Numbered from the stretch's first letter, positions 4,498 to 54,989 are shown. The stretch is 64,000 nucleotides of DNA from a virus (IMGVR_UViG_3300026320_000001:32001-96000); one strand, 5' to 3'. The notes: generated from the letters alone by a model not told the origin. Made by a program: numbers and translations.

Positions 4498-7400
4498 ATG
4501 GAAAGAGAAAAAACAAAATTTGTTATACAGGTTAATGGTTATGGCACATTTGAATTTATTGGCAATCTTGAACAAGCAAAATCTTTGCGTGAAAATAAAG
4601 CAAGATGGGAAAAGGCAGTTGCTCATTTGTGGGATGCTCTTCAAGAATGCCAAAAATGTAATCACTTAAACTGGTGGCAATCATCAAAATGTGATTTTTG
4701 TGATGCAGAAATGGGCGACCCAATTTTAATTTGGTAATTCATAAAACATAATTTTATTTAGGAATATAAAATGGAAAAATCTACAAAAACTATTGATGTT
4801 TATAAAACAAAAACCGTGAAAAAGAAAACGGGAGAAAAACAAGTTGAAATTTTTACAGCCAGAGATGGTCGTGAATTTACAACAGAATCAGGTTGTCTAA
4901 AACATGAAACAGAATTAAATAGAATTGATAAATTTAATTCTATTAAAAAGATACAGGACGGTAGCACTTATAGATTTCCTGAAACATGGTATTTTATATC
5001 AGATGAAGAAGAACTTGAAATGATTAAAAATATGGTTGGTTTTTATGATAATTATAATTATGTTCATATTAATGATGAAGATAAAAATAAAGATAGTGAT
5101 ATATTAAAAATTGGTGATTGGATTGGTTCATATAATTTTGATGGTGGAGATTATAGAGGAGATGTATATATTTATACTTTAGAATATCTTTCAAAAAAAT
5201 TTATGAAAATATTAAAAGAAGCAAAATTGATGAAAGTATAATTTTATCAACTAGGAGAAAAAATGAAGGAAATATTTATAATAGATAGTTCAAATAATAC
5301 TGAAGTTGTTGGTATCAATGTCAATGATATTAAAGAAGTTTCATTAATGATTGATATGTTTATTGGTCATGGTTTTGAATATAATAATTTATCTTATGAA
5401 TATAGCCATACTATTATGAAAAATTATGGTTGTGATATTTATGTTACAAAAAAAAGAAAAAGAGAATAGAATGAATTTAGAATTACGAATGTATTTTTTC
5501 GTCCCTTACAATATTTCAGAAATTCAAAAAGGAATACAGGCTGGTCATGCGGCTTTAGAATATGCTTATAAATATGGTCAAACAGAATTATATCAGGATT
5601 TCATTAAAAATCATAAAACTTTTATTATCTTGAATGGTGGAACAACAAGAGATATAATTAATGATGAAGATGATGGTGGAACACTTCAATCCATTCAAAG
5701 ATTGCTTGGCATCAATAAAATTGAACATTCATCTTTTAAAGAACCTGATTTAAATTATGCTACTACAGCACTTTGTTTTATCGCAGATGAAAGAGTTTTT
5801 AATAAAGAAAAATATCCTGATTGGATTCCCGGAGAAAAATGGATTAATATAGATATGCATATTTGGAATTATGATGAATGGATTAATTTTATTGGTGGAG
5901 AAAAAAATCTTTTTCTTAGAGAATTGTTGAAAGATAAAAGGTTGGCCTAATGAAAATATTTGATGGATTATTTTTAACAAATATGATTGGTTTTCAAGGT
6001 GAAAATATTTTTGAAATAAAAACAAAAGATAAACATTATCTTATTGTTTATACAAATAATTGGGACAAACTTATAAAAGATGGTCATATTGAATTCGATG
6101 ATTATCCCACATCTTTACTTGGTTTTCCGGTAAATACTTTCCAATTATACACTGGAATTCCAGTTATTGAAAATGATGAATTGTTATTGGAAATATTAAA
6201 AGAAATATTCCCAATTAAACCAGTGGAATTCAGATATGCTTAGAATAAAAATTGAATTAATTCCTTTTGGTATTTTGCCTGTAAAAAATAGTTGGAATGC
6301 TGAAATATGGAATGATGCAACAGGTGATAGGTCTATTGGAAATTATCAATTTAAAATATTTAGAAAAAATTCAAATTCAACCATTTGGAAAGGCGGAGAA
6401 ATAAAGAATTTTCAAAGACTCCGATGGAATGTCTGGTATTTATTATATCTCTGTTTAAAAAATGTTTACGATGATTAGGAGTAATTTAAATGAAAATTAA
6501 ATTCAATATAGAATGTGAAATGGAAACAAGATGGATTCCATATTTTTTAGCAATGCTTGCTCATATGGAATTTTTAGGAAAAATTGGTTCAAGTAAACTT
6601 GTTACATTATATTCAGATGGTGATGGTGATTTTAGACCATCATTTATTTGGGATACTAATTTGCCAGAACCAACTCTCAATTACGAAGTTGATGAACATG
6701 GTAATACAATTTTTGATGCAGGTTAAAAATTTATAAAGGATAATCATGTGGCAAATAAAACAAAAAATATTTGAAAAAGGTCGTGGCGATTGTGTTAAAT
6801 GTTGTATCTGTTCTTTATTTGAACTAGATTATGATATTGTTCCAAATTTTATAGAAGAAGAAAATAATGATTGGTTATTGGGATTATATAAATTTCTCGA
6901 ACCTTATAACCTAGAACCAATTTATATAAAATATCCACATCCTCTTTATCAAGGAATTGATTATATTGCAACAGGTAAAAGTCCTCGTTCTAATAATAAT
7001 TATAAAACAAATCATGCAGTTATTTATCATGCAAGAAATATGATTTTTGACCCACATCCTGATAATTTAGGAATTGGAATTTTTGAAAATATTATATTGT
7101 TTCATCCAATTTCATTAAATAAATCTTTGAGGAATATAAATGAAAAATAAAAAGAAAGAAATATATTTAATAGTAATATTATCACCATTTGGACTTAGAC
7201 AGGTCACATTTAAATTGGTGGATGAAAAGCCAGAACCATTTCATTATACAAAAGGAGAGGGCAGTTGTATGATTTTTAAATTAGTTGATGGAGATTTTTC
7301 AACAAATTTTAATAAAGCCATCGAAAATGGAACAATTATGAATGAGTTTGGTAATTTTTCAATTGATACCGATTTGTCAAATATTCCTGAAAAGAAAAAG

Positions 7401-8297
7401 AAATTTGATAAAGAAGTTGAAAAAATGAAAAAAGAAAATAAATGGAGTTAATAATGCAAATATCATTAAGAAATTTATATTTTATTATCAAAGAACAATA
7501 TATTCATGATGGATTAACGGGATTTCCAGATATGGCATTTACATCCATAACCGAAGCGATGAGAGCATGTCCTAGAGATTGTAAAGTTATGAATTATGAA
7601 CAAATTTTATTAGAAATATCTCGAAATATAAAGGAAATTGAAAAATGAATAAATATTTTAATAGAATTAAATGTTTAACTTTTCACAGAAAGTATCATCT
7701 TAGTAGTTTTCCAATGGAGTTCTCTCTTTTACAAGAAAAAGATTGTTTAAAATGTGGCTTACATTGGGATGACCAAATGGGAAAATTGACCTATTATGAA
7801 ACAGATGACTATGATGGTATTCCTGTTCAGTATTCAATAATATTGAAACAAATTAGAGGAAAAATATAAATGAATAAAATAGAAGAAGAATTTTTATCAA
7901 GCTTGAAAGCATTATGTGTTAGATATAATGTTGAAGTTAAGTATATTGATTATGATAAAGTTTATTATTTTCATGGAATTAATCTTCAAGATTCAGAAGA
8001 TGATTTCTTTGTGAGTATAGATGATATTATAGAATTTATGGATAAATAAACCATATGAAACAAAAAAAAACTTGTAAACATAATGGCAAAATATTAATTA
8101 CAAAATATTTTAAAACATCAACTCAAATTTCCATTGAAAATAATGAACACGAAGAATTTTATGATGAAGATTATCATGAAGGAAAATATTATAAGGTTGA
8201 AGGATATTGTTGTCAATGTAAAAAAAATTGGTCTGCAAAAAGTATTTCAAAACTTCCAAAATTTTTTGAAAATAGATTGGAAGAATCATCTTACTAG
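4498..8297 (+). other. Array of short, tightly packed hypothetical ORFs (includes the Pth2-like gene listed separately)
   Basis: Overlapping or abutting + strand ORFs of 60-160 aa with AGGA/GGAG RBSs. Confidence 0.7.
5471..5950 (+). CDS. Peptidyl-tRNA hydrolase Pth2-like protein
   Basis: MYFFV...KGIQAGHA, IILNGG, F.EPDLN...TA motifs of phage Pth2-like proteins. Confidence 0.7.
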   Translation: MNLELRMYFFVPYNISEIQKGIQAGHAALEYAYKYGQTELYQDFIKNHKTFIILNGGTTRDIINDEDDGGTLQSIQRLLGINKIEHSSFKEPDLNYATTALCFIADERVFNKEKYPDWIPGEKWINIDMHIWNYDEWINFIGGEKNLFLRELLKDKRLA

Positions 8298-8308
8298 AGG
8301 TTTATAAT

Positions 8309-8758
8309 ATGGACATTGGAAGTGGTAAAGGATTTCCAGCATCAAATTTATCTAATTTTTCACCACACCCTTTTGAAATTGATGGTGTTATGTGTAATAG
8401 CATGGAGGGATTTCTTCAATCTTTAAAATTTAAAGATGTTGCCATGCAAGAATATGTTTGCACATTAGTTGGATTAAAGGCAAAATTTAAAGGCAAAGAT
8501 AAAAAATGGTGGAAGACTCAAACTCTCTGGTGGAGAGGTGTTGAAATTGATAGGCATTCAAATGAATATCAATTACTTTTAGATAGAGCATATAATGAAT
8601 TGTCCAAAAATGAATCTTTCAAAAGAGCATTGTTGGCAACAGGAAATTCATCTTTGAAACATTCCATTGGAAAAAATGATGCTCATAAAACCATTTTGAC
8701 TGTGAATGAATTTTGCGGTAGATTATTAAAAATCAGAGAAGGATTGAAAAATGAATGA
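8309..8758 (+). CDS. NADAR family protein (T4 gp30.3-like ADP-ribosyl hydrolase)
   Basis: LSNF.PHPF..DG..C.SMEGFLQSLKF and ALLATG motifs. Confidence 0.8.
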   Translation: MDIGSGKGFPASNLSNFSPHPFEIDGVMCNSMEGFLQSLKFKDVAMQEYVCTLVGLKAKFKGKDKKWWKTQTLWWRGVEIDRHSNEYQLLLDRAYNELSKNESFKRALLATGNSSLKHSIGKNDAHKTILTVNEFCGRLLKIREGLKNE

Positions 8759-9909
8759 AAATATAGTTAAAATTTTTTGTGATTTATCGGATTATAAACT
8801 TCCAAGAAATGAAAAAAATCTTGATAAGATTAATTTTGAACTTAAAATTGGACAAAAAATTTATTGGTATTATAAAGAAGATTTAGAATTTTTTGAAAAT
8901 GAAGGTGAAGATATAAAAGAAAATCTTGATTATATTTTTAGTGGAATAATTATTCCTATTCCCGGAACGGATAGTAATGCAGAACTTTATATCGAAAACT
9001 GTATTTTAGTTATTACCGATTATCCTACAGAAAAACAATCTCCAGAGATTGATTGGGTATCATTAAACAGATTATTGGACAACGATAGTTTGATTGAAGT
9101 ATTTACTAATGAATAAAAGGATGCTTTTATGAATAAATATAAAAATTTTATAAAAACAATGCCTAATAATACTAAATTATTAGATGTTGTAAAATATTTA
9201 GATGAAGTTGGATTGAAAGGATGGATTCTTTCTGTTGTTATAGTTGGTGATACTGAATCTATTTATTTTTTTCATAGAAAGATTGAAAATGAATAAATAT
9301 AAATGTTCTTGTGGTTGTATTTGGTATGCTAATGAATTCAATTCGGAATGTGAAGATAGTACAGATGATTATACAGGTGCAAGAAATCATATTGTAAAAA
9401 AAACTAAAGCTTTGTTCTCAGAAGATTATATAATATTTTGGGAATCTAATTTAGAAAATGCAAATCGTTATTCTATGTCAAATATGCCAAAAGAAATTTT
9501 AAAAATATTAAATAAAAATATAGAAGACCATAACATTATTAAAAACATTATGAAAGATTGTTATCACAAAGGAATTGGTGTATGAATAATAATTATTGTC
9601 CAATGCATGAAGGTAAAATAGTTCTTCTAAAACTTATGCCAGAATATTCTTCAAGCGGTATTTGGTGTGAATGTGGCCTTAGTTTCGGAAATCCTGAAAT
9701 ATTAGATTTATCAAAAGGATTGATTGATTTAGTTGAGGGCTGGAATTTAATGTGGGAAATGGCGCAAGATGATAAAAATTTAAATAAAGAATATTTTGAA
9801 AGAATATTTGTTGATATGGGCAATGAACTTTGTTCACAAGTTAGTAAAATTATTCCATGTTATTTTGACTCAAATATTATAAATGAAAAATGGTTTTGGG
9901 ATGAAAAAA

Positions 9910-11422: not shown

Positions 11423-12776
11423 CACCGATGAACCAACCAGATATTTTGATTTATATATAGTTGGAAGTGAAGGTCTAAATGTTTGCCATGATTGTGAAAT
11501 GAAAATTGTTGAATTTTGCAGAGATTTGAAAAGTGAAAATTCTTCTAAATTATTGAAGAAGGCAAAAAATGATAAATATTGGAAAGAAATTGGGTGGAAA
11601 AAATTTGGAATTGATTTGGATTGGAATGATTTAATTGGTGAACGAATTTTGGTACAAATGAGTCCATATGCCACCGAAGCATTGGATAGAATTGTTGAAA
11701 GAGTTCATCTTGATTTTGTATATTTTAAATATGATAATAACGGTTATGCAAAATTATCATTGAAACTTATACGAATTCATCGAAGTGATAAATTTTTTTA
11801 TGGATATAATTGGTAATAAATGGAGAATAAAAATTGAAAATAGTTGAAAAAGAAAATATAGAAATAGAAAAGTTGATTGCTATTCAATGCGATAAATGTA
11901 AGGTTAGATATAATGATGTAATGGAAACTCAAGAATTTTTATTTATAAATTTTGTTGGTGGGTATAATTCTATTTTTGGAGATGGAGATAAAATTGAAGG
12001 TGATATTTGTCAACATTGTTTCAAAGAAGTTCTAGGAGAATATCTTACAGTAACTTCAGATGATTGAAATCATAAATAAAAAAATTGTTTTATTAATAGG
12101 AGAAAAAACATATGATTATAAATATTCCAGAAAAAATAGAGTATGATATTAACAATAGAGAAGCATATCTTCAATGGAAATCTGATTGCTGGAGAAATGT
12201 GGCAATTTCCCTAAAAGAATCTATTGAAAATAAAAATTCAGATAGTATTCAGAACTCTCTTGATATGTTTGAAACTGTAAAAACTATGTTTCCTTATGTT
12301 GAAATTTAGTTTATAAAATGGAGGTTTCATGAATGACTTGCAAATTGCCTTAACTCATTATAATAAGAAACATGAAAAAGAATTTGAAGATTATGGAAAT
12401 TGCCATATTGAAATATATGAGAATTGTTCTATGATTAGACATGAATATATATATTTAGATAAGATTTTTAGAAAAGAATTTTCAATGATTAATGGTGTCA
12501 ATGGACTATTAAATTATTTATTAAACAATTAATAAAGGAAAACATATGACAACTAAAAGACGTTTTTTCTATCATTATAATAAGCCATATTCACAAAAAA
12601 TGGGTGAGACTTATTGGAGTGTTCATTTTAAAGATGTTTGTTATTTTGTCAAGGGAATTGATTGTCGTGTTCCAACACAAAGCAAAAATCAAAAAATACA
12701 ACCTCGTGCTATTATGATTGGGTTTGCCAATAAGGTTGAACTTCAAAATAATATAGCAATTATTAGTTGAAAAACC

Positions 12777-12805: not shown

Positions 12806-12810
12806 TATTT

Positions 12811-13328: not shown

Positions 13329-13400
13329 GTCCCATTATTTCAATGGATAGAATAAAACGCTACGAACGTTTTGGTGCGAGTTCGACTCTTGCATGGGACT
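13329..13400 (+). tRNA. tRNA-Arg(ACG)
   Basis: gtcccat/atgggac; aaacg-ctACGaa-cgttt. Confidence 0.9.
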
Positions 13401-14094
13401 CAAAAATTAAATGAAAAGGATGTTTTATGAATAAATTTTGGTGTATATTTAGAATATTTTTTAAGAATACACTAGGAGAACTTTATGCTATTATGATAGG
13501 TGTGCCATTAGTTATAATAGTTTTTTTATTGATTTCTCATTGGATAAGTAATTATGGAATTTATATAAAATCTTTTCTTTATAATATTCTTTATCAAATT
13601 TGTTTATTTTTATATTTATATAAAGATTTTATTATTTATTTTCTATTTTCAATTTTCAATTTATTTTATATTTATGGATTTTATTCTGCATTGAAATATC
13701 AATGGAATAAAGCCAAAAAAGAATACAGTGGTATATTATGAGATTTCAAATTGCACAAAAAGGTGAAAAAAGAGATGTGGAAGGATTTCTTTGGCTTCCA
13801 AGAGGCTTTGATGGCAATGAAATAAGATGGTTAGAACATGCTAAATGGAGAGAATATTATGATGGTATTAATTGGATATTTTACTATTGGAATGATTAAA
13901 CGCAGTTAATAAAGGAAATATTTTATTAATAAAAAAATAGAGTTGGGCATATTCGTATGGATTGTAGTAAGTTTATTGTATTTTATAATTCTAGGATTTA
14001 CTTTACGTCATATAATGTTACTATCATTTGGCTTTATTTATGGGATTTTAAAAATAATTTCATCAATTGATGAAACGTGAATTTTATCAATAAT

Positions 14095-15016: not shown

Positions 15017-16067
15017 CTAAAATTTAAGGAGAATAAAAATGAATGAAAATGATATAGAACACATTATTAATCAAATGAAATATATTCCTATTAGAAATTT
15101 TTATCATGCAGATAGATATGATACAGATAATGAATATGTTATTCATCTTTGGACTGAAATAGGTCAAAAAAATTTTGACATTAGAATTAAAAAAGAAAAA
15201 ATTAAATGTCCATATTGTGACGATTTTTATTATGAGGGTGGTTGGGCAAATCATTTATTAATGAAACATCATCAACATGCTGGATAAATTATAAAATGAG
15301 ACAAGTTAAACTTTTATATTTCAAATCATATGGTAAATATTATTCTGAAGGTTCGTATGCTACTCAAAAAGAATATGATTTTGATGTTTATACCGAAGTA
15401 GAAAATATGTTTTTAATTGGTAGTTATCCGGGACTATATAACACTGGAAAACCTCATGAATTTGATTGTGTTATTTTCCCTGAAAATGGTGTTCCCGGAA
15501 TTCTTTATGCAAAAGAAATACAAAATTTATTTAAGATGATTAATGGCTAAATTTGATTTAAGACCGATAATGGAATTTCAAGTAAAAGTTGTTTTGACCG
15601 AAGAAGAAGCTAGGGCGTTGCAATATATTTGTAAATATGGTGCAGATACTTTAATCAAAGGCTTGGATACTGTCATGACCACAAAAGAAATTAGCAAGGG
15701 AATCAGAAGTCTTGTTCGTGATACACAAGATTCTATAAATAAACAAATTAGTAAAATTGATGAAGCTAGAAAAGTAGTTGAAGAATAATTGATGAAATTT
15801 ATGTTTTATGGAAATAATATAATTATGTTCAAACAAAAATGTCCAATATGTGATTCAAAATTAGAATATGATATTGATAATTTAGATTTTTATCTAATGG
15901 AAGAGCATTATAATTGCCCCAATAAAGATTATTCTTATTCATATGAATATGGAATGACAAACATAACAATAGGAAATAAAGAATTTAATTATACTTATTT
16001 GGATAGCAATGTAAAAAAAGCTTTAATTTTAAAAGAAATCAAATTAGAGACTGAAAGATTGAAGTCC

Positions 16068-16539: not shown

Positions 16540-16752
16540 AAGACACGCACAGTAATCAAACCCAATTCAACCGTTAATTGAAAAATAAGTGTCTTGAAAA
16601 ATAATTTATATATGTACAGATAGACTCTCACAGCAAATAAAATCTTTGTCCAAAAGAAAAAATGGAGTCTTGGCTAATCGTCTAACAATCATAAGACGCT
16701 ATACAGCAATTAAAATAATCAACTTTCAAACAGATGAAATAAATTGCGTCTT
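16540..16752 (+). repeat. Three tandem structured RNA repeats AGACNC-N2-3-ACAGYAA...GNGTCT upstream of the DUF2828 gene
   Basis: Units at 16540-16595, 16622-16670 and 16693-16752; closing stems agacac/gtgtct, agactc/gagtct and agacgc/gcgtct covary. Confidence 0.8.
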
Positions 16753-16776
16753 GAGAATTTTCAGAGGAGAAATAAA

Positions 16777-18249
16777 ATGAATTTAAAAAATGCTTTATCA
16801 AATGAATCAAATTGGACTCAAACAGAAAATGATGCTGATGCATTAAAATCAACTCAAAATAGTTTAGTTGATTTATTTGGTGTAATTGGTGCATTGCGTA
16901 CTCGTACTGGAGATGTAGAAAATCTTTTTATTAAGGCTTTTTATGAAAATAAATTGCTTGCAACAAAGATGTCTTTTTATGCTCGTAATGTTCGTGGTGG
17001 ACTTGGTGAACGTAGTGTTTCAAAAATTATTTGGAAATATTTAGCAAATAATTATTCGGATATTATGATTAAAAATATTAATATCATTCCTCTATTTGGG
17101 CGTTGGGATGATTTATATGAGTTTGTTGGTACTCCTGTGGAAAAATATATGTGGGAGTTGATTAGAAATCAATTGAAAGAAGACTTGGAAAATTTTACTT
17201 CGGGAAATTCAATTTCTTTGTTGGCAAAATGGATGAAAAGTATTAATGCTTCTTCAACTGAAACAAATCGTCTTGGAAAATTGACAGCAAAAAATTTAGG
17301 ATATTCAGAACAAGAATATCGTAAAATGTTAAAAACTTTGCGTGACCATATTAATATTGTTGAAAGTAAGATGTCAAATAATCAATGGTCAGAAATTGAC
17401 TATCGTTCTGTTCCTTCTAAGGCTATGATGAATTATCGTAAATCTTTTTCAAAACATGATTTGGAACGTTTTGGAAAATTTATTGAAAAAGTTGAAACAG
17501 GTGAAGAAAAAATTAATTCTTCAACTTTATATCCTTATGACATTTTTGAAAAAATGGGATTAGCAGAAAAATATGGTGGAAGAAGTCAAAGCTTTTATTT
17601 CACAAGTCCAGATAAAGTTTTAGAAGCACAATGGAAAGCATTGCCAAATTATTTTGTTGATGGTGATGTTTTGGTTATGGCTGATACATCTGGTTCAATG
17701 CAAGGTAGACCAATTGCAATTTCTCTTGGATTGGCTGTTTATTGTGCAGAACATAATAGTGGACAATTTAAAGATTCATTCATTACATTTTCAAGTCGTC
17801 CAAGTTTTGTCAAACTTGTTGGAAATACTTTGGCAGAAAAAATTCGTAATGTTCCAGCTATTGTAGAAAATACAAATATTGAATCTGCTTTTAATTTAGT
17901 TCTTAATGCGGCAAAAGAAAATAAGGTTTCATCTGAAGATATGCCAAAAGCGATTATCATTATATCAGATATGGAATTTGATAGATGTTCTGGTTATCGT
18001 ATGACATTTTATGATGCTATGAAATTGAAATTTGAAAATGCCGGACATAAAATTCCTGATATTTTATTTTGGAATGTAAATAGTCGCCAAAATGTATTTC
18101 ATGCATTTTCAGAATATAAGGGTGTTCAATTGGCAAGTGGTTCAAGTCCATCGGTTTTTTCAAGCATTATTAAAAATTTGGGCATGAATCCATATGAAGC
18201 AATGTTGAATGTTTTGAACGATGAAGTCTATAATGTGGTTGTAATTTGA
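16777..18249 (+). CDS. DUF2828-family TROVE/Ro60-like helical domain plus vWA protein
   Basis: TENDA..KST...VDLF, RNVRGGLGER, GRWDDL, LLAKW; vWA MIDAS DTSGSM...T...SDMEFD; GAGGAG RBS before ATG 16777. Confidence 0.8.
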   Translation: MNLKNALSNESNWTQTENDADALKSTQNSLVDLFGVIGALRTRTGDVENLFIKAFYENKLLATKMSFYARNVRGGLGERSVSKIIWKYLANNYSDIMIKNINIIPLFGRWDDLYEFVGTPVEKYMWELIRNQLKEDLENFTSGNSISLLAKWMKSINASSTETNRLGKLTAKNLGYSEQEYRKMLKTLRDHINIVESKMSNNQWSEIDYRSVPSKAMMNYRKSFSKHDLERFGKFIEKVETGEEKINSSTLYPYDIFEKMGLAEKYGGRSQSFYFTSPDKVLEAQWKALPNYFVDGDVLVMADTSGSMQGRPIAISLGLAVYCAEHNSGQFKDSFITFSSRPSFVKLVGNTLAEKIRNVPAIVENTNIESAFNLVLNAAKENKVSSEDMPKAIIIISDMEFDRCSGYRMTFYDAMKLKFENAGHKIPDILFWNVNSRQNVFHAFSEYKGVQLASGSSPSVFSSIIKNLGMNPYEAMLNVLNDEVYNVVVI

Positions 18250-18878: not shown

Positions 18879-18951
18879 TCAAGAGGTTAACGACACCAGA
18901 CTTTTAATCTGGCGCAGGAATGCTTCGTGAGTTCGAATCTCACCGATTCCA
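18869..18951 (+). tRNA. tRNA-Lys(TTT) with long variable arm
   Basis: ggaattg/cgattcc; ccaga-ctTTTaa-tctgg; V arm gca-GGAA-tgc. Confidence 0.85.
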
Positions 18952-18992
18952 CTTGTAAGAGAAATTATAAAAATAAAAAGGAGAATTATAAT

Positions 18993-19499
18993 TTGAAGAT
19001 TTTGAAGAACTTTGTTTTAGGTGTTGTGTTGTTATTTTCTGTGATTGGCTATAATGTATATGCCGCTCCATTATTTCAACCTTCATTAGTTTTAGCTCAT
19101 CATGATATTGGAAATGGTTCTTGTCAAGAACAATATGTGAATGAAAATGCTGTTGGAAATGGTGAATGGTTTATTGGTGCTTGTCCCGATGTAACTCCAG
19201 TACCAACCGATACATCAACCGTTGTGCCAACCGATACAGATACTCCAGTCGTGACAGATACTCCAGTCGTGACAGATACTCCAGTCGTGACAGATACTCC
19301 AGTCGTGACAGATACTCCAGTCGTGACAGATACTCCAGTCGTGACAGAAATTGCAACTTTTATTGCAGACCATTCACCTCGTAAATATAAGTGTTGGGCG
19401 GCAAAATGGTTTGGATGGGGAAATGGCCCTCTTCCTGTTGATTGCAGATGGCCTGATAATATGCCACAAAGTCCAATTCATGATGGATGGAATGATTAA
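18993..19499 (+). CDS. Secreted protein with Pro/Thr-rich TDTPVV linker
   Basis: AGGAG RBS plus TTG start; signal-peptide-like N-terminus ending VYA; Cys pairs on both sides of the repeat. Confidence 0.65.
   Translation: MKILKNFVLGVVLLFSVIGYNVYAAPLFQPSLVLAHHDIGNGSCQEQYVNENAVGNGEWFIGACPDVTPVPTDTSTVVPTDTDTPVVTDTPVVTDTPVVTDTPVVTDTPVVTDTPVVTEIATFIADHSPRKYKCWAAKWFGWGNGPLPVDCRWPDNMPQSPIHDGWND
19236..19343 (+). repeat. Perfect 18-bp tandem repeat x6 (acagatactccagtcgtg)
   Basis: Read directly; encodes (TDTPVV)6. Confidence 0.95.
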
Positions 19500-20201: not shown

Positions 20202-20239
20202 CAAATTATAAATAAAATATTTGTTTTATTTATTTTTAT

Positions 20240-22113: not shown

Positions 22114-22708
22114 TTTTAAGCTGATTAATGAATTTATTAACCCTAATTTATTTAAAAAAATAGAATGGAGAGAGGACTATAGAGATAGGTTAAAATGAAA
22201 AATAAATGTATTGTGATACTCCGGGGGAACTCAGAAGGAAAAAACAAATTTCAAGAAATTGTTAAAAAAAGATATTGGATTTGGAATATATCTCCATCAA
22301 ATTTAGGTGGGGAAGTTGCAAGACTTTTAGGTTGGGATGGAAATCGTGATACTCAATTCAATATATTTATAGATAAATTATTAGATTTAGGTGATAATTA
22401 TTTTGATTTTAGATATTGGTATATATCTAATTATAAAAATAAATTATTGGAATCTGATAAGGCTGAAAAGAATAATATGACTGGTGATTTGATGGTTATT
22501 CATGGGGCTGATGACTTTTTATCAAAAAGACTTCAGGATGATTATAATATATTTGAATTCACTCTCAACAAAACAAAGCAAAATGATTCTGGAATTAATG
22601 GATTTATGTTTTGTTATAATGATGAAGATTTTGAAGAACAAATTTTTAAGAGAATAGAAGAATTAAGTTTTATAGAAAATAAAATAGAAACACAAGGAGA
22701 AAATATAG

Positions 22709-23632: not shown

Positions 23633-23655
23633 TTTATAACTAGGAGAAAATAAAA

Positions 23656-24087
23656 ATGTGGATTAAAGACCAAACTATTAGGGTAATTGTAACAAGTGCA
23701 GTTGATAAAGGCAAATATGGAGAATTGCGTTTTGTAGATTCTCGAAAAGTAAAAGCAACCGGACTTTATGTAAAATCATATTTTTCTTTTTGGACAGTTG
23801 CAGGAACAGCTTATCAAACTTTTCCAACTTTAGTAAGAGCAATTGAAAATTCTGGAACATTTGAAGGTTCAGATAGAAAAAAGGGTGTTCAAATTATTAT
23901 TAAGGCATTTTCAATCGGTCAAGAAAAATATACTGACAAAGAAGGAAATGAAATATTTTCAAAACAACCTCGTTTCACTGTTTGGGATTGGGATTTTGTA
24001 GAATCTTCTAATAAAGATATGGATACTCCTTCAACTGTTGAAACACCTTTCGACAAAGAACCAGAAATTGAATGGCCTGAAGAATAA
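23656..24087 (+). CDS. Putative ssDNA-binding protein
   Basis: Beta-rich OB-like body, acidic tail, position between Sak4-like gene and primase. Confidence 0.55.
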   Translation: MWIKDQTIRVIVTSAVDKGKYGELRFVDSRKVKATGLYVKSYFSFWTVAGTAYQTFPTLVRAIENSGTFEGSDRKKGVQIIIKAFSIGQEKYTDKEGNEIFSKQPRFTVWDWDFVESSNKDMDTPSTVETPFDKEPEIEWPEE

Positions 24088-24108
24088 AATATACATTTTA
24101 TTAATAAA

Positions 24109-24143: not shown

Positions 24144-24176
24144 AAAAATTCTTACTTTTATAGACTTGGAGAAAAT

Positions 24177-36925: not shown

Positions 36926-39837
36926 CAAATATATTAAAAACAGGAGAATTATTATGGCAACCCTACAGATTGACCTTGAAATATCTATTGAATGTGAAAA
37001 ATGCGGGAATAAATCTAAACCAAAATTTAATGAATCTTCTGCGCGTATATGGGCAATTACAAATGGTTGGCATATAAATTATATTAACGATACTGCCATT
37101 TGTTCTTCATGTCGAACAAAAAATCTTTTAGGAATAAAAAATGGAAAAAACTAATTTTATAAATTTTTGTGGAATAGCTAATTTTGATGAGATAATTACA
37201 TCGCAATTTTTATTATATGTTTATTATAATAAATTAGAAAATAAAAATGAAATTGAATTATCTGAGTTTATTAAAAAAGAAAGAACTATTACTGAATGGC
37301 AATTTATTTGTGATGGATTTTTAGAATCTCTAACTATTGTTAAAAACGCTTGGGATATAAAATAATAAATAAAATGTGCATTTCATAATTGAGGAATAAT
37401 GGCAAAAAGAATTAATATTGATGGAAAATTTTATCGTAATCGCAGAGGGAAACTTGTTCAAATTCCTGATGAATGGCTTGGTAAAACTACTGACCGTCAA
37501 ACAATAAAAAAAAGAAATTCTATTTCTAGACGGACAAGAAAGAATAAAAATAAATCAACATAGGAAACAATAATGATAGGTATAGGTAAAGTAATTAAAT
37601 CTGTTGCTGGTGGATATGCATATTTTGAAGTTGAAAAAGATTATATAGAATATATAGATACTAAAAAAATAAAATTTCTAGTTCGTAAAATTGAAAGAAA
37701 AAATGAACATGATTTTGATATAGAAATGTTTCCGTATAAGTATGATAAGCCTGATTATCAAAACCCCGAATTTTTAACCCTATATTGTGATATAGCAATC
37801 ATAAGATATAAATAAAATACAGATTTTATCAAGGAAAATAAAATGACAATATTAAATCAAACTTACACTGGAATGCCTTGCCCACTTTCTATTCACTATC
37901 TTAAGGATACGATTAAAAACAGAGGTAACTCATCAATGATGATGCAAATATCTGTTTCAGCTTGGGAATTAGCAATAGTTTTGGACAGACTAGATTATCT
38001 TGAAAGATATGAAAAATATGTTCAAACAGCAATTGAAAAAGGTGTTCCTTATAAATGAAAATTAATATGATTAATAGCATAAATAAATATAATCAAGAGT
38101 TAAAAAATTTAAATTATCAAATAATTATTGCAACAAATGAAACTCAAATTTTTATAAATCTTATATCTGCTTATATTTATAAATCTTGGTGGCAACGAAT
38201 TCAATATTGGTTGAGATTAAAATGAAAGAAACCGTGTCATTATGAATGATTCACAAAAGTTATTATTAGATATTTCAAAAGACCCTGAAAAATCAGAAAG
38301 ATTTTTTAAGATTGTTGCGGCTGATAAATTAATTCGCAAAGGAAAATTATTGTTGATTGTTTGTTTATGTTTGTTTATTGGATTTATGTTTGGGAAAATA
38401 TTATGAAAATACAATATCATAATTGTGAAGAATTAAAAAAAGAAATTCATGGTTTGAAATATCTTGATGCATTACATGCAATAACAATATGGCATCATGA
38501 TGTTCAAAAATTTTGGATAATGTCTTTATATCAACACGCAGATATAATTATTAATTATTGTCCATTTTGTGGAGTTAAATTAAAATGAATTGTGATTATT
38601 GTAATAGTAGAATTATTGAAGAAGATGAAAATTGTTCTCATTGTGGTGCGCCAATAAAAGACTATTATTCTACAAAAGAATGGATTTCTAAATTAAATAT
38701 TTATAATAATCTAAAAGATTTTAAACTTGGAAATGAAATACATATATCTTCTCTTTCAAATTCAATAGAATATTTTGAAAAACATTCATAAAATGAAAGA
38801 TTCATAAAGGAAAACATGATTATAGAGAAAAGAAAAAATCCATCATATCAAGTTGGAGATATAAGATTAAAAAGAGGATTTATTTTTTTAAAAACAATAA
38901 ACAATATAACAAAATTTTTATCTAATGAAATTTGGACTGAAAAATTATTAGATAAAAATATATGGGAATCCTTACAATGGGGATGGAGTATGTCGAATAT
39001 AGGTGAAAGAGTTTTTATAAACAATATTCAATTAATGCATACTAGAGGTTTGGGATTCAAAGAAGGTAAAAAAAATTTTATAGAAAATATTTTGATATAT
39101 GGAAGTGAAAATAGAATAAAATATGAAATTATAAATTATTTCTTTGAAAATACATATCCAAATAAAGAATATACAATTGAATCAAGAGAAGATAGAGCAG
39201 TTTTAGTGAAATTCACAAATAATCCATATGTTCAATCAATTATCTATGATACATATAATAATTTTTTAGAAGGTATTGGAATTGATAAAAAAATTATTAA
39301 TAAATATAAGTTAAAAAATTACAATGTTTTTCATAGCAAAGGAAAAAATGAAACCACTTAAATACATAAAAGAATTATCCAAAAAAACAATTGAATGGTA
39401 TAATATTTTAAAGATTTCTGAAACAGGAACAATTCCACCTAAAGAAGAATGGGCTAAACATTTCAATGTTTCCATTGGACTTTATGAACATGTTCAATTA
39501 GAAATGAATAAATGAAAAATCCTAAAACGGTTTATTTTTGGTGGAGTGTTGGTCATGTCTATCAAGCAGAATTTGTTCGATGGGTTATTAAGAGAATGCA
39601 TAATGGCAGAGATGATACCAATAAATTAGGAGTTGCTGTTTTACTTGAATCTGATTGGTTATTTAATAATGTCAAAATATCTTATGGTTGCAAAAGAGGG
39701 CAATATATTCTTAGACCGACCATATACAGATTTATATCGTTCGTATAATAAAGCTTATAGTGGAATTGATAAAATAAGAAGACCAACTGTTGAACAAATA
39801 CGATTAATAAAATAAATCTTTTATAAAGGAATCTAGT

Positions 39838-40317: not shown

Positions 40318-43300
40318 CTATATAAATTACCATAGTCATTCGCACTATAGCAATGTGATTGTTCCAGATTCGACAATTTCAAATAAAGATAGGGCGAATA
40401 GGGTTTTAGAATTAGAACAAAATGTTTTGAGTTCTGTAGAACACGGCTATGTTGGTCGTCCAATAGAAATTATTGAATTATCAAAACAATATAATTTAAA
40501 GCCTTTATTGGGTGTTGAAACATATTATGTTCGAGATAGAAAAGAAAAAGATAAAACAAATGCACATTTAATTCTTTTGGCAAAAAATGAAGAAGGTAGA
40601 AAAGAAATAAATTGGGCATTATCTGAAGGAAATGTTTCTGGATATTATTATCGTGCCAGAATTGATGATGAACTTTTATTTAATATAAATCCAAATAATG
40701 TTTGGGTTACTTCTGCATGTCTTGGTGGAATTTGGAAATACGAAGATGCAGATGATATTGTTTTAAAAATGAAATCATATTTTGGTTTGAATTTTTTCTT
40801 AGAAGTTCAGGCACATAATGTTGAACCACAAAAAGAATTGAATCAAAGAATTGTAAATCTATCTAAGAAACACAACATTAAAATTATAGCTGGTGCAGAT
40901 AGTCATATGATTTTTCCAAATCAGGCAAAAGACCGTGATGACTATTTATTATCAAGAGGAATTGAATATCCAGAAGAACAAGGTTGGTTTTTAGATTTTC
41001 CTTCATATGATGAATTTAAGAATCGATTTGAAATTCAGGGAATTTTAAATAAAAACCAAATTGTAGAAGCATTGGACAATACTAATATATTTCAAAATGT
41101 TGAAGAATATAGTTCAATAATTTTTGATAATACAAAAATTAAACTTCCAACAATTTATCCAACTAAAAATCAAGAAGAAAAAGATAACATATTTAAAAAT
41201 ATGGTTTGGAATTTATGGAGTCTTGAAAAAGATAATGTGCCAGAAGAAAAATGGAATCATTATGAAGAAGAAATTCAAAAAGAAATGGATATTATTCTTG
41301 AAACCGGAATGTCTGATTATTTTCTATTAAATTATGAGGTTGTAAAAAAGGGAAAAGAATTAGGTGGTTCAATTACCTTAACTGGTAGAGGTTCAGCACC
41401 ATCATTCTATATTACAAAATTACTTGGACTAACAACTATTGATAGAATTTCTGCATCTGTAAAAATGTTTCCAGAAAGATTTATTTCCAAAGAAAGATTG
41501 TTGGAAACAAAGTCACTTCCAGATTTTGATTTCAATCTTGGTACTCCAGAAATTTTTGCACAAGCACAGGTAGAGATAGTGGGTGAGGGTAGAAGTTATC
41601 CCATGATTGCATTTGGAACAACTAAAAATTTAAGTGCTTGGAAATTATATGCCAGAAGTGCTGGAATTGATTTTGATACTTCAAATCATGTATCAGAACA
41701 ATTAACACAATTTGAATTAGATTATAAGCACGCAGAAGAAGATGATAAAGAAAATTTAAATGTTCTTGATTATATTGACAAAGAATTACATCAAACATTT
41801 TTAGAAAGTAGAAAATATATCGGACTCGTAAATTCTTTGACTATTCATCCATGCGGTTATCTTCTTGCAGATTTTGATTTACGAAAAGAATTTGGTCTTA
41901 TAAAAATAAAAACAGGAAATGTAGAACATATCTGTGTTGCTTGTGATGGACTATTTGCAGAACAATATAAATTACTTAAAAATGATTTATTGAAAGTTGC
42001 CGTTGTTGATTTAATTTATAGAACTTATAAAAGAATTGGAATTAAACCACATCCATTACCAGAACTTTTAAAAATTTGTGAAAACAATGAAAAAGTTTGG
42101 AATATTTATAAAAGTGCTTGTGGTATGGGAATTAATCAAATTGAACAACCCGGAACTGTTGGCAGAGTTGCAAAATATGCGCCAACAAATATATCAGAAC
42201 TATCTGCTTTTGTTGCGGCTATCAGGCCGGGTTTTAAATCAAATTATAAACAATTTGAGGCACGTGAAAAATTTGAATATGGGATTCCAACTCTAGACAA
42301 ATTGATTCAAACTGATGAATTTCCACAGAGTTATATGCTTTATCAAGAAAATGCAATGAGTGTTATGGCATATGCAAAAATTCCTATGTATGAAACATAT
42401 GAGATAATAAAAAATATTGCCAAAAAGAGATATGCAAAAGTTATAAAATATAAAGAACAATTTACTGGAGGAATGAAAGAAAAACTTATTGAGGAAAAAG
42501 TTTCAATGAGAGATTCCGAAGAAACAGCCAGTATGACTTGGCAAATTATTGAAGATAGTTCAAGATATAGTTTCAATTGTAGTCATTCTTACAGTGTTGC
42601 TGGTGATAGTTTATATGGAGCATGGCTTAAAGCGAATTATCCATATGAATTTTATGAAGTATTTCTTCAAATGCTTGAAGATGATGCAGACAAAGAAAGA
42701 CTTGCAAAAACAAAGATTGAAGCTGAAAAACATTTTGGAATTAAATTTCCTCCATATCGTTTTGGTCAAGATAATAGGGGAATCATTGCCGATAAAAAGA
42801 ATAAAACAATTTCATCAAGTTTGAAAAGCATAAAAAGTTTCAACCATCAAATCAGTGAAGATTTATATGAATTAGGAAAAAACAAATATAATACATTTAT
42901 TGATTTTTTAATTGATGCCGAAGAAAATGGATATATATCTTCTAAATTTGAAAAACTTATTAAAATAAAATATTTTCAATCATTTGGAAACAATAAAAAA
43001 CTTTTGACAATTTGGGAAGAATTCAAAAAGGGTAAAAATAGATATGCTAAAAAACTTTCCGATAAATCAAAAGAAAAAAGAATTCCATTGTTGTTAGAAA
43101 TAGAAAAAAATACACCAAATGATAATTTGACTTTTAGAGAACAAATATTGGCAGAACAAGAAATTCTTGAACATGTACAAGCTGTATATCCAAATGTAGA
43201 TAAAAAATATATTTATGTTATGGGATTGAACGATAAATATGCTCCAAGAGTTCAAGCATATTCTATCAATGGTGGAACACAATCAACCCTAAAAATATAT

Positions 43301-43526: not shown

Positions 43527-43576
43527 TGGGGAAAAATTGATAAAATAGTTCTTTTATTAATAGAAGGAAAAAATTA

Positions 43577-44059: not shown

Positions 44060-45709
44060 ATGATGATTAAGTTTTTGGCAAGTATTTTATTTGTAATTAG
44101 ATTTTTTAAAAAGAATAAAAAAGTATCACAATATTTAATAACAACACTTGTATTATTTTCTATATTTTATTTTTTCAATTCAGATATGGCTATCACAATG
44201 ATTTCCTTAATTCTGAGATTGGGATTTTCTGCATTATTATTAATATCTCAGTTTGCATTTTTATTTATGTTTATGGCTCGTTCAAAAACAATTACAATTA
44301 TTCCGGGAGATAAAAATCAATTAACATTGAATGATTATAAAGGCCAAGATATTCTTGTCGAAAATATGAGACAATGGATAAAAACGCTTCGAGGAGACAA
44401 AAAATTTCAAGAAATGGGCGGTGAACCACCAAGAGGATTATTGCTCGTTGGAAGAGCGGGAACTGGCAAGACTCAGTTGTTAAAGTGTTTAAGTGGTGAA
44501 GCAGGGATTGCAATGCACGCAATTGAAGGAAGTGGATTTAAGGCAATGTTTTGGGGAATTGATATTTTAAAGATGAATCAATTTGTTAACAAAGCAAGAA
44601 ATCTTGCATTAGAATATGGTAGTGCAATCTGTTATATTGATGAAATTGATGCTGTAGCTTCTTCTAGAGGGGGAGTTATGGGAGGACAAAATCAACCAGC
44701 CGGAATGATGGGCATAGGTGGAGGTTCTCTATCAACATTATTAACTCAAATGGATGGTCTTTCAGAAGAACGCGAATTTATTAAATGCCAAAATATTATT
44801 AGAAAATTGTTTGGTATGAAATCAATAAATGAAGGATATGTAATGTTTGTTGGTGCAACAAATAGACCTGATGTTCTTGACCCTGCAATTGTCAGAGCCG
44901 GAAGATTAGATAAAACAATTACTGTTGAACCACCAGACGCAAAAGGAAGAAAAGAAATATTTGAATATTACTTGAATAAAATCAAACATGATGATATAAA
45001 TGTTGATAGTGTTGTTGCATTTTCTCATGGAATAACTCCGGCAGAAATTGCAATGTCTGTTCAAAGAGACAGCGTTAGAAATGCAAGATTTGCAAATAGA
45101 AATTCTGTAACACAAGAAGATTTAGAGTGGGCATTAGTAGAAGAACGTGCTGGATTTTCAAATCCAATTGATAACATGCCAATAGAACAACAAAAACAAG
45201 TATGTATTCATGAAAGTGGACATGCTGTTGCATTATATCATCTTAGAAAAGATAGATTAATTAGTTTTGTTTCTACCGTTAGAAGAGGTTCAGCTTTGGG
45301 AATGGTTATTCCTGTTGATACAGAAACTAATTATGCAATTCCTTTAAAAAGCTTTATTGCAGATATTAGAATTTCTATGGCTGGAGATAAGGCAACAGAA
45401 GTTCTTCTCGGAGAACGTTGGACTGGTGCTAGGGGAGATATTGAACATATTAAAAATTATGTTTCTTACTTGGTTCATCATGGAGTTTTTGGTCAAATAC
45501 CATTTGGAAATAGTGAAAGTATTATGAATAATGAACAAGTACAAAAATGGATAATCTCACAATGGGAAGCAACACAAGAATTCTGTGAAAATCATATTGA
45601 TGAAATTAGAGTTTTATCAGACGTTCTAATGGAAAAGAAAGAACTTCCCGGTAGAGAAGCAATTAAAATTATTGAAAGTGTTATAGGAGAAAGAAAAAAT
45701 GAATCGTGA
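44060..45709 (+). CDS. FtsH-like membrane AAA+ metalloprotease
   Basis: N-terminal TM helices; GRAGTGKT, IDEIDA, ATNRPD.LDPA..R.GR and HESGH. Confidence 0.88.
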   Translation: MMIKFLASILFVIRFFKKNKKVSQYLITTLVLFSIFYFFNSDMAITMISLILRLGFSALLLISQFAFLFMFMARSKTITIIPGDKNQLTLNDYKGQDILVENMRQWIKTLRGDKKFQEMGGEPPRGLLLVGRAGTGKTQLLKCLSGEAGIAMHAIEGSGFKAMFWGIDILKMNQFVNKARNLALEYGSAICYIDEIDAVASSRGGVMGGQNQPAGMMGIGGGSLSTLLTQMDGLSEEREFIKCQNIIRKLFGMKSINEGYVMFVGATNRPDVLDPAIVRAGRLDKTITVEPPDAKGRKEIFEYYLNKIKHDDINVDSVVAFSHGITPAEIAMSVQRDSVRNARFANRNSVTQEDLEWALVEERAGFSNPIDNMPIEQQKQVCIHESGHAVALYHLRKDRLISFVSTVRRGSALGMVIPVDTETNYAIPLKSFIADIRISMAGDKATEVLLGERWTGARGDIEHIKNYVSYLVHHGVFGQIPFGNSESIMNNEQVQKWIISQWEATQEFCENHIDEIRVLSDVLMEKKELPGREAIKIIESVIGERKNES

Positions 45710-48486: not shown

Positions 48487-48717
48487 ATGTATCTTGATTG
48501 GATTCTAAGTATATTAACAATTGCAATGAATATAATGTTGGGAAAGAAAATTAAATGGGGGTGGATTATCATGTTTATTTTAAGTTTATTGTGGATATAT
48601 TATGCATTATCTTTAAATCCTCCACAATATGGTTTACTTCCAGCAATCATTGCAAACCTAATTATTTCTGTTCCTAGTGCAATCAAATGGTTTAAGGAAG
48701 ATAAAGCGAATCAATAA
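48487..48717 (+). CDS. Small PnuC-like membrane protein
   Basis: Three hydrophobic segments, K..WGW motif, terminal KW. Confidence 0.4.
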   Translation: MYLDWILSILTIAMNIMLGKKIKWGWIIMFILSLLWIYYALSLNPPQYGLLPAIIANLIISVPSAIKWFKEDKANQ

Positions 48718-49272
48718 AATTTCACTTTTATCAATATAGAGGCAATAATGTTTACTAAAAGAAAATCAGAATTAGAATTTGGAATTAGTGCTGGAAAAAA
48801 TGTTTATAATGCAGAATTAAAAAGTAACGGTGTTAAAAAAATAATATTACAATGGATTGAGGGAAGAGAATCTATTTATATTAAATTTGCTGATATTTTT
48901 GGTTATAAAGAAATGTGGGGAGTGTTTGGTATTGATGAGTTTATTGTAATGGCAGAAGAATTAAAAAAATTAAAAGAAGAAAATAAAGGAAAATAATTAT
49001 GGATGAATTTATTGCTGGAATAATTGTCGGATTACTTGTTGCATATCTTATTTGCATTGTCATAGTGTGGAGTTAATTATGAATAACGAAGATGATTTAA
49101 TAGTATCAAATAATGAAAACAAAGAAAATAAGATAAGAGTATTTCCACAAATTAAAAAAATGATTCGTAGAGAATTATTGAATGAATTGATAGTTGTATT
49201 TTCAGATATAAATACTGATTGGTCAACCAATGACTTGATTAATTTCTTAACTTCTTATGATGAGAAATAAAA

Positions 49273-50338: not shown

Positions 50339-51022
50339 ATGATTTCATATTATGGGTCTAAAAGCAAAGTAATTAAATATTATCCAAAACCAATACATGA
50401 TTTGATAATTGAACCATTTGCAGGAAGTGCCAGATATGCATTAGAATATTTTGAAAAAGATGTAATACTTATTGAAAAATATGAGACACTTTATAAAATA
50501 TGGAAATATCTTCAACAATGTTCACCTAAAGATATTCTTGGTCTTCCTAAAATGAAATCTGGTGAAACAACAGATGATTATAATTTTGATTGTATTGAAG
50601 CAAAATGGCTTATGGGATTCATGGTTCAACAGGGAGTTAATGCACCTCGAAAGACTGTTTCAAAAGTTGGTAATTTTGGCAAATGTATAGAGCGTGATAA
50701 AATGCGAATTTCATCAAGTCTTTATAAAATCAAGCATTGGGATATAAGACTCGGTGATTATAGAGATTTGAAAAATAAAAAGGCCACATGGTTTATTGAC
50801 CCTCCTTATCAATATGGGGGAGAATATTATCATTCAAGTGTTAATAATTCTCATTTAGATTTCAAAGAATTGTCAAAATGGTGCAAAAAAAGAAGGGGGC
50901 AAACGATAGTCTGTGAGAATACAAAAGCTAATTGGATGAATTTTAAACCATTAAAAGAAATGCATGGAAGTAAAAATACAACCACTGAAGCAATATGGTA
51001 TAAGGAAAATAATGGAATTTAA
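50339..51022 (+). CDS. DNA adenine methyltransferase (Dam/D12 class)
   Basis: YYGSK, EPFAGS and DPPY motifs. Confidence 0.85.
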   Translation: MISYYGSKSKVIKYYPKPIHDLIIEPFAGSARYALEYFEKDVILIEKYETLYKIWKYLQQCSPKDILGLPKMKSGETTDDYNFDCIEAKWLMGFMVQQGVNAPRKTVSKVGNFGKCIERDKMRISSSLYKIKHWDIRLGDYRDLKNKKATWFIDPPYQYGGEYYHSSVNNSHLDFKELSKWCKKRRGQTIVCENTKANWMNFKPLKEMHGSKNTTTEAIWYKENNGI

Positions 51023-53235: not shown

Positions 53236-53239
53236 ATAT

Positions 53240-53277: not shown

Positions 53278-53333
53278 TTAAATTTCAATAGAAGGGAGAT
53301 TGTTTGTAAAAAATAAAAATTTATGGAGGCTAT

Positions 53334-54953
53334 ATGGGATTTGCAGATGATATAATGAAATTGAGATATTCTTGGGATAAAAAAGATGGAACAAAAGAAG
53401 AATGGCCTGATATAGCCAAAAGAGTAGTTAAAAATGTTTTCTCTTCAGTTGAATTTGAAAATAAAAAAGAAATTTCTGATAGAATTATACAATTAATTTC
53501 TGAAAGAAAATTTATTCCGGGTGGCAGATTTCTTGCACAATCAGGAAGAGATTATCATCAGGTGAATAATTGTTTTTTATTAAAAGTTGAAGATACAAGA
53601 GAATCTTGGGGTGATTTGGCAAATAAAGCTACAATAATGTTAATGTCCGGCGGTGGATTAGGTGTGGATTATTCTGAACTTAGACCTAAAGATACTCCAT
53701 TAAAAAGAAGTGGGGGTGTCTCTTCAGGAGTTATTCCTTTGATGAAAATGATAAATGAAATTGGCAGAGGAGTTATGTCTGGTGGAAAACGAAGAAGTGC
53801 AATTTGGGCTGGACTTAGATGGAATCATGGAGATATATTTGATTTCGTAAATATTAAAAATTGGTCTGAAGATATTAAAAAATTGAAACAAAAAGATTTT
53901 GATTTTCCAGCACCTATGGATATGACTAATATATCTGTTATATTAGATAAAGATTTTTTTGATGCTTATGAAAATAAAGAAAACGAAAAACATAAACATG
54001 CACAAAATGTTTATTGGCAAGTAATAGAAAATATGACTAAATCTGGAGAACCCGGCTTTAGTATTGATTATGAAAATAAAAAAGAATCTTTAAGAAATGC
54101 ATGCACTGAAATTGTATCGGAAGAAGATTCGGATGTATGTTGTTTAGGTTCTATAAATTTATCTCAAATAAAAGATATAAATGAATTAAAAGAAGTTACT
54201 GAGTTGGGACAATTATTTTTGATTGTTGGAACTGAATATTCTGATGTTCCACATCCAAAAGTAAAAGAAATACAAAAAAGATTAAGAAGAACTGGATTAG
54301 GATTGATGGGGTTTCATGAATGGTTAATTCGTAGAAATTATAAATACGAACCAAATGAAGAATTGGGAGAATGGTTATCTGTTTGGGAAAAAGAATCTAA
54401 TAAATCAGCTAAAAAATGGTCAAAAATATTAGGTTTTAATGAACCGATTAAAAAACGTGCCATTGCACCAAATGGAACTATTTCAATTGCCGGAGGACAA
54501 ACAACATCTGGCATAGAGCCTATTTTTAGCGTAGCATATCAAAGAAGATATTTGACCCCTGATGGATGGAAAAAACAATATGTCGTTGATTTTGTAGCAG
54601 AAAAATTACATGAAGAAGGATATGATGTCTCACAAATTGAAGATGCATATTCATTAAGTTTAAATGTTGAAAAAAGAATATCATTTCAAGCATTTGTTCA
54701 AAAATATGTTGATAATTCAATTTCATCCACGATAAATATGCCAGCTTATGAAACATTGGGAAATAATGATTATAAAAAATTTGGTAAAATATTAATGAAA
54801 TATTTGCCTCAACTAAGAGGGATAACCGTATATCCCGATGGAAGTAGGGGCGGGCAACCATTAACTCCTGTTTCATTTGATTTTGCTATATCAAAAAAGA
54901 ACGTTGTTTTTGAAGGAAGTGAAGAATGTGCAGATGGTATTTGTGGTGTATAA
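53334..54953 (+). CDS. nrdJ: Ribonucleotide reductase, probably class II (B12-dependent)
   Basis: PGGR, NNC, GGG.G, NACTEI, CCLGSIN, APNGT and C-terminal C....C; no beta-subunit gene nearby. Confidence 0.8.
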   Translation: MGFADDIMKLRYSWDKKDGTKEEWPDIAKRVVKNVFSSVEFENKKEISDRIIQLISERKFIPGGRFLAQSGRDYHQVNNCFLLKVEDTRESWGDLANKATIMLMSGGGLGVDYSELRPKDTPLKRSGGVSSGVIPLMKMINEIGRGVMSGGKRRSAIWAGLRWNHGDIFDFVNIKNWSEDIKKLKQKDFDFPAPMDMTNISVILDKDFFDAYENKENEKHKHAQNVYWQVIENMTKSGEPGFSIDYENKKESLRNACTEIVSEEDSDVCCLGSINLSQIKDINELKEVTELGQLFLIVGTEYSDVPHPKVKEIQKRLRRTGLGLMGFHEWLIRRNYKYEPNEELGEWLSVWEKESNKSAKKWSKILGFNEPIKKRAIAPNGTISIAGGQTTSGIEPIFSVAYQRRYLTPDGWKKQYVVDFVAEKLHEEGYDVSQIEDAYSLSLNVEKRISFQAFVQKYVDNSISSTINMPAYETLGNNDYKKFGKILMKYLPQLRGITVYPDGSRGGQPLTPVSFDFAISKKNVVFEGSEECADGICGV

Positions 54954-54989
54954 TATAATTGATAGAATCAAAATTTTATAAATAGTAAA

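Follow-up and report, generated by a model that had tools for sequence, protein, structure and literature searches.

Inverted repeats with individually distinct 6-bp spacers at gene junctions of a large siphovirus: probable crossover joints for gene exchange between related phages

The DNA stretch IMGVR_UViG_3300026320_000001:32001-96000 (64,000 nt in full, hereafter the window) corresponds to bases 32001-96000 of a complete virus record of 147,693 bp with a G+C content of 28.5%. The genome encodes DNA polymerase III alpha, a primase-helicase, 21 tRNAs and a tape-measure tail module; on this gene content it is grouped with Tsamsa, E3, Perkons, SPbeta, 949 and similar large siphoviruses. Scattered over the window is a short palindromic element, ATRAAA-N6-TTTYAT, which an earlier reading of the sequence (the original prediction) had placed at gene junctions and interpreted as either a cassette-recombination site or an operator. 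Here the element is examined in the entire genome, in related viral contigs (among them G001, G006-G012 and G014) and in the cultured phages SPbeta, phi3T, Tsamsa, Izhevsk, E3, Perkons and Lactococcus AM1.

As the original prediction had proposed, the motif was compared with composition-matched shuffled sequence. The window contains 22 exact copies, whereas 100 dinucleotide shuffles yielded 0.83 +/- 1.04 (maximum 5), in agreement with the anticipated figure of less than one chance match. Gaps between the arms of any other length from 0 to 15 bp returned 0 to 4 copies each. The 17 exact and six near copies listed originally all lie at the positions given for them, that at 4741 being the 5-bp-spacer variant it had been said to be; five further exact copies (1790, 15792, 28380, 45600 and 50697) had been overlooked. 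The motif is confirmed as real. The sites are listed below in window coordinates and without strand.

1790-1807: exact site with weak outer arms, inside an HNH/homing endonuclease gene; may be a chance occurrence
4741-4757: weak, degenerate variant with a 5-bp spacer, gene junction
5227-5250: 9-6-9 site overlapping the 3' end of open reading frame (ORF) 4771-5241
9113-9130: exact site overlapping the stop codon of ORF 8751-9116, its spacer and right arm lying over the next ribosome-binding site (RBS) and ATG
12076-12093: junction site
12313-12330: junction site, bracketing with 12076 a single 65-amino-acid gene (12112-12309)
13411-13428: exact site 3' of tRNA-Arg (13329-13401)
13909-13926: one-mismatch junction site
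14067-14090: 9-6-9 site 5' of tRNA-Lys (14095)
15792-15809: exact site past the stop codon of ORF 15543-15788 (overlooked)
20212-20229: exact site between tRNA-Ile and tRNA-Asp
24084-24101: exact site 5' of the primase-helicase gene
27951-27968: junction site
28380-28397: exact site within the Thg1 gene, its outer arms good (overlooked)
29578-29595: one-mismatch junction site
32804-32821: junction site
33288-33305: one-mismatch site at the 3' end of ORF 33092-33307
34128-34145: junction site
35125-35142: one-mismatch junction site
35341-35358: junction site, bracketing with 35125 a single 57-amino-acid gene (35168-35341)
37369-37386: junction site
37812-37829: junction site
38788-38805: one-mismatch junction site
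39807-39824: junction site two genes ahead of the DNA polymerase III alpha gene
43540-43557: exact site that follows the DNA polymerase gene; a near-consensus -35 box starts 63 bp upstream of it
45600-45617: exact site with good outer arms, within the 3' end of an FtsH-like gene (overlooked)
48714-48731: junction site
50697-50714: exact site inside ORF 50339-51022 (overlooked)
54962-54979: one-mismatch site following the ribonucleotide reductase gene, at the point of convergence of early and late transcription

The whole genome (about 148 kb) holds 43 exact sites, 40 outside the 48-kb late region and three inside it. The tail genes had been thought to have no copies between them; the late region is indeed poor in sites, but strong copies lie there at genome positions 102876, 118966 and 127334. 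The half-site reads TT(A/G)ATRAAA, with TT at -3/-2 in 72/86 and 63/86 half-sites, bearing out the claim that the best copies extend to 9-6-9. The inner 5-6 bp of each arm are invariant, the outer 3 bp are weaker and the gap is strictly 6 bp. Two arms inverted around a fixed centre in this 9-6-9 arrangement are the layout of tyrosine-recombinase core sites of the Xer/dif type. The usual position is on or directly 3' of a stop codon and ahead of the next RBS: a stop codon occurs within 15 bp of 27 of 53 relaxed sites with a 6-bp gap, as against 4 of 63 at other gaps. Every copy found originally had been assigned to a gene or tRNA boundary; four of the five overlooked exact copies fall inside coding sequences. 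Strong sites within coding sequences are seen at 28380, 45600 and 50697 in the window, at 57800 in G001 and at 60737 in G009; two of them are kept between relatives, and crossover joints may thus occur within genes too. A Clostridia genome showed no enrichment (20 copies versus 66 for a reversed control); as it is not that of the phage's host, a host factor could still be involved. No published description of the motif was found in the literature searched, of which subscription journals were mostly not a part.

The placement between stop codon and RBS could mean that the two arms form an RNA hairpin acting as a processing site, terminator or translational element. In the stretches examined of the SPbeta GenBank entry (AF020713) no site is annotated as a repeat, and one is annotated as a stem_loop (116406-116431), which fits such a role. 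Variable arm positions in this genome do not covary, however (11 A.C and 7 G.T combinations, no G.C), and the stem would be almost entirely A-U with a rigid loop length. Because the arms do not covary, they are better viewed as independent DNA half-sites, and we give the hairpin a negligible chance.

The 43 exact sites carry 43 different spacers, in either orientation, as the original prediction had reported for the window. Spacer pairs within one mismatch number 4 in this genome versus 18.3 expected (0/2000 permutations). When this genome was pooled with G001 and G009, identical pairs were 0 versus 4.5 expected (P=0.01) and near pairs 37 versus 69. No identical pair occurs within any one of the SPbeta, phi3T, Tsamsa, Izhevsk, E3 and Perkons genomes. 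The spacer thus carries information. Since the spacers of adjacent sites never match, recombination between matching spacers would involve two different genomes instead of excising a cassette from one.

Comparison of relatives (44 motif copies in G001, 59 in G009) shows genes being replaced between sites whose spacers stay the same. Five consecutive spacers are identical and collinear in G001 and G008, the intervening genes being unrelated or added; two of these sites stand out as 18-bp islands of identity with background identity on either side. In G009 and G012, a 78%-identical pair, 9 of the 11 collinear spacers at junctions are identical and each of the remaining 2 has one mismatch; fourfold-degenerate sites in this pair are 51% identical, giving an expected identity of 0.018 per neutral 6-mer. 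One gene lying between two sites is 289/296 identical next to an unrelated left flank. When sites were paired by one flank only, 18 of 22 spacers were identical, a count into which no selection on the spacer enters given this mode of pairing, and identity fell from 0.92 to 0.33 immediately beyond the far arm. Junctions of small genes are breakpoints in 14 of 24 cases with a site and 72 of 240 without (P=0.01). Two indels, at G009 56852 (versus G012) and at SPbeta 87598 (versus phi3T 80189), switch at the arm/spacer boundary or no more than 2 bp from it, the sequences sharing only about 8 bp; together with one new spacer, they suggest occasional exchange between mismatched spacers. Spacer order is kept in every pair compared, with genes replaced in place.

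These patterns bear on the regulatory half of the original prediction, under which the sites would be operators bound by a single dimeric phage protein (a repressor, an integrase-fold repressor of the MrpR/SroF type, or the HU-like protein encoded at genome positions 127629-128006) with no role in recombination. The palindrome, the fixed spacing and the frequent adjacency to an RBS are what such a network would display; a HU-like gene is present in most relatives, and SPbeta, of the same phage group, has an integrase-fold repressor acting on dispersed sites, the SPBRE (PMC10516654; 10.1101/2025.11.27.690993). Yet MrpR is a monomeric, catalytically dead binder with a repressor role, and its 15-bp motif, occupied at 9 peaks, is not the present one; the target of SroF, likewise bound by a monomer, is a 26-bp box. 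Both integrase-fold proteins found in the present genome are intact, and no strong promoter is overlapped by a site. A promoter scan counted no more near-consensus sigma-70-type promoters than in shuffles, and none of the 41 overlaps a site. Furthermore, no HU-like gene was found in G009, which has 59 sites, although its sequence is only 91% complete, and operators would predict neither spacer addressing nor crossovers at sites. With 0/41 promoters overlapped and the position-specific conservation and over-dispersion of spacers left unexplained, the operator reading is poorly supported and we regard it as very unlikely.

Cultured phages have the same element: a de novo search ranks TAAAA-N6-TTTTA first among palindromes in SPbeta (34 copies), phi3T (30), Tsamsa (23), Izhevsk (22), E3 (30) and Perkons (17); it is weak or absent in Lactococcus AM1, G006, G010 and G011. 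Motif-poor G006 has 18 copies of another palindrome, TGACA-N2-TGTCA, versus 0.25 expected. SPbeta and phi3T have 24 spacers in common, all collinear and five of them as identity islands; Tsamsa, Izhevsk and G007 exhibit the same pattern. Dragos et al. (Supplementary Table 1; 10.1101/2020.05.06.055103) tabulate 17 junctions found in DNA of recombinants between SPbeta and phi3Ts; we converted their chromosome coordinates with a single offset reproducing the ends of the long homology blocks. Fifteen of the 17 lie within 400-19760 bp of homology. The only two outside long homology (7 and N1) map to sites with shared spacers: junction 7, for which 30 bp are listed, extends across the island site at SPbeta 69423/phi3T 62422; N1, described as non-homologous, begins on the SPbeta side with base 116414, which is also the first of another island site, and on the phi3Ts side ends 14 bp short of the matching site at 107396. 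At least one crossover at a spacer-matched site has therefore occurred in living cells, and probably two. Spacers match at natural and laboratory junctions alike, the exchange point not being placeable inside the 18-bp identity.

These junctions can also be accommodated without a site-specific enzyme, if the sites were protein-binding elements kept for regulation or DNA architecture and served as 18-30-bp linkers of micro-homology at which general recombination or single-strand annealing could act, with gene exchange still in register. This would explain the islands of identity, the conserved spacers and the two laboratory junctions equally well; identical 18-mers within one genome would also be selected against; and the poor co-distribution of motif and recombinase genes (see below) would be expected. 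The PeSLs of T4-type phages provide a precedent (PMC2839356). On the other hand, a mere linker requires neither a palindrome nor a strict 6-bp centre that is not read, the avoidance extends to spacers differing by one mismatch, the two indels described above switch next to the arm/spacer boundary with very little sequence in common, and scans of promoters and positions found no other function for the sites. We consider micro-homology alone possible but unlikely.

A further alternative is that of integron-like cassettes, excised as circles between neighbouring sites and re-inserted in the same or another genome by a recombinase tolerating spacer mismatch. It could account for the one-gene-per-site arrays of G001 (0.9-9 kb and 54-58 kb) and for the new spacer brought by the two indels. 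It could also account for an extra 53-amino-acid gene in G001 (41077-41270), which lies between a full site and a degenerate copy with a 5-bp spacer and a similar centre; this arrangement is possibly the footprint of an insertion with site duplication. Integron cassettes change order, whereas here genes are replaced without reordering along a conserved series of spacers, neighbouring spacers never match, the arms lack the covariation of folding attC sites, and the recombinases of the genome are not beside sites and are nearer to XerA/XerD than to IntI. We deem this explanation quite unlikely. The recombination half of the original prediction is upheld in part: sites mark breakpoints of gene replacement in relatives and two SPbeta/phi3Ts laboratory junctions, but their geometry is not that of excisable cassettes.

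Among known systems, the dif modules of Acinetobacter plasmids are the ones the sites work like, with differences in arm sequence and symmetry. There, host XerC/XerD act on many pdif core-type sites with 6-bp spacers that bound accessory genes, and single modules replace one another, via a cointegrate, between sites with identical or one-off spacers (PMC13141974). Such replacement between spacer-matched sites is seen in the relatives, not in the present genome. Unlike in pdif, where distinct XerC and XerD arms resemble chromosomal dif and C and D modules alternate, the arms are symmetric and do not resemble XerC/XerD boxes; the spacers are unique within a genome, whereas those of pdif recur and permit inversions and deletions; and the sites, some 30-60 per genome, are carried by a phage, with an enzyme that is a candidate only. 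A-tract arms facing a 6-bp centre are shared with difH and difSL, the targets of XerH and XerS (PMC2731167, PMC5241119), and XerH reads the inner 5 bp of each arm while hardly contacting the centre (PMC5241119). These, however, are single chromosomal sites for dimer resolution, usually adjoining their own recombinase gene, and the fifth base from the centre is G in the difH consensus (PMC2731167) and T or A here. Like PeSLs, the sites are repeated intergenic elements marking modular gene shuffling in accessory regions; PeSLs, though, combine a sigma-70 promoter and a terminator stem-loop, recombine with each other within one genome and form mini-circles (PMC2839356), whereas the present sites are 18-24 bp long, have no promoter and avoid mutual identity. 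A putative attP next to gp50 of Tyrovirus, proposed for the same tail-linked recombinase family, is likewise an inverted repeat (11-6-11; PMC9703825). It is a single site and not the present motif: the inverted repeat that we located there in Tsamsa has a different sequence, and none is present behind the gp50 homologue of this genome.

In recombinase-mediated cassette exchange, heterospecific lox or FRT sites have the same arms and differing spacers; like pairs with like, and the intervening segment is swapped rather than excised. The phage sites would constitute a natural, many-site version of this laboratory method.

No recombinase gene lies in the window, as originally noted, but two tyrosine recombinases with intact R-K-HxxR-H-Y residues are encoded elsewhere in the genome. 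One is a XerD-like protein of 282 amino acids (genome 27434-28282; R140, K163, H232, R235, H258, Y267). The other, of 334 amino acids (genome 99382-100386; R166, K212, H284, R287, H311, Y320), belongs to the YomM family and is encoded directly 5' of the tape-measure gene. The nearest solved structures for both are XerA, XerD and XerH, and the AlphaFold model of the YomM-family protein is confident (pLDDT, the per-residue model confidence score, 93), which says nothing on its target. YomM is the only recombinase family present in every near-complete motif-rich phage examined; a resolvase-family serine recombinase was looked for and none was found. In the Tyrovirus study the role of gp50 was left open, with late expression deemed probable (PMC9703825). 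In the YomM proteins of G009 and G012, Trp takes the place of the second His, as it does in Cre.

Altogether, the sites very probably are addressed crossover joints, and in all likelihood this genome uses its sites as its relatives do; as its only near copies are near-identical, gene swaps at its own sites are inferred from those relatives. The explanation that best fits the whole of the data, to which we assign a probability of roughly 60%, is that spacer-addressed joints mediate in-register gene exchange and are probably cut by a phage tyrosine recombinase. The palindrome would be a fixed crossover joint and the 6-bp spacer the address of a genome position. With two related phage genomes in one cell, each site would recombine with the same-spacer site of the other: a single crossover would generate a hybrid genome, and crossovers at two neighbouring sites would swap the genes between them in register, with reading frames uncut and no need for homology between the genes. 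Unique spacers would at the same time protect a genome from deleting or inverting its own segments. Strand exchange is probably the work of a site-specific tyrosine recombinase; the tail-linked YomM-family protein is our tentative candidate, and the XerD-like protein an outside one.

Several observations weigh against this explanation. The majority of breakpoints lie at junctions devoid of sites, so that sites would be an additional route of exchange and not the sole one. Enrichment of breakpoints at sites is significant in SPbeta/phi3T and in the pooled data only; the test, based on blast blocks, was not significant for G009/G012 or Tsamsa/Izhevsk alone, and it missed the G001/G008 array. No relative is close enough to display a swap in this genome, the near copies being 99.9-100% identical and the next-nearest relatives having no shared collinear spacers. 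Among the laboratory data, the authors' coordinates for N1 do not account for 13 bp of phi3Ts, the ends of the phi3T/phi3Ts replacement do not fall on sites and the hybrid junctions in long homology add no support. Sites make up about half of the short collinear identities that SPbeta and phi3T share, hence the two remaining junctions cannot separate a site-specific enzyme from micro-homology recombination. As to the enzyme, YomM is found in phages poor in the motif as well (Lactococcus AM1, at 45% identity, G006 and G011) and has HxxK in place of HxxR in SPbeta (AF020713 40301-41302), E3 and Perkons. The XerD-like protein has no counterpart in SPbeta, Tsamsa, E3 and Perkons, for which reason it was downgraded from first choice. 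Finally, no site lies beside either recombinase gene.

Some other features of the genome deserve mention. Along with the 21 tRNAs, it carries an RNA-repair and tRNA-maintenance set comprising two RNA ligases, a kinase-HD protein, an RlaP-family nucleotidyltransferase, Thg1 and a 501-amino-acid phrog_850 RNA-binding protein (window 666-4496, 16744-18249 and 28151-28873; genome 17898-18995 and 31575-32669). A WGR-PARP domain protein and an FtsH-like protein (AAA plus M41 peptidase) are encoded at window positions 30361-31557 and 44060-45709, and a perfect tandem repeat with an apparent period of 18 occupies about 19236-19348, within ORF 18927-19499. This genome (at window positions 22195-26920) and G009 carry an AAA_24/primase-helicase/PD-(D/E)XK block and lack a gene block common to G001, G014, SPbeta, Tsamsa and AM1, a difference possibly reflecting a replication-module swap within the phage group.

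How phages come to swap non-homologous genes precisely at gene boundaries is usually put down to illegitimate recombination with subsequent selection, or to short homologies that act as linkers. In the present case individually addressed sites stand at these boundaries, across a wide group of phages that includes the model phage SPbeta. We see an even chance that phages of the SPbeta/Tsamsa kind practise programmed crossing-over, in which one phage tyrosine recombinase would act on some 30-60 heterospecific sites and the spacers would serve as population-wide addresses for the slot-by-slot exchange of unrelated accessory genes between related phages. If so, the same enzyme and sites would provide an orthogonal tool for multi-site engineering. 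Published recombinants already hold junctions at sites, and this long-standing question can be tested in B. subtilis with existing phages.

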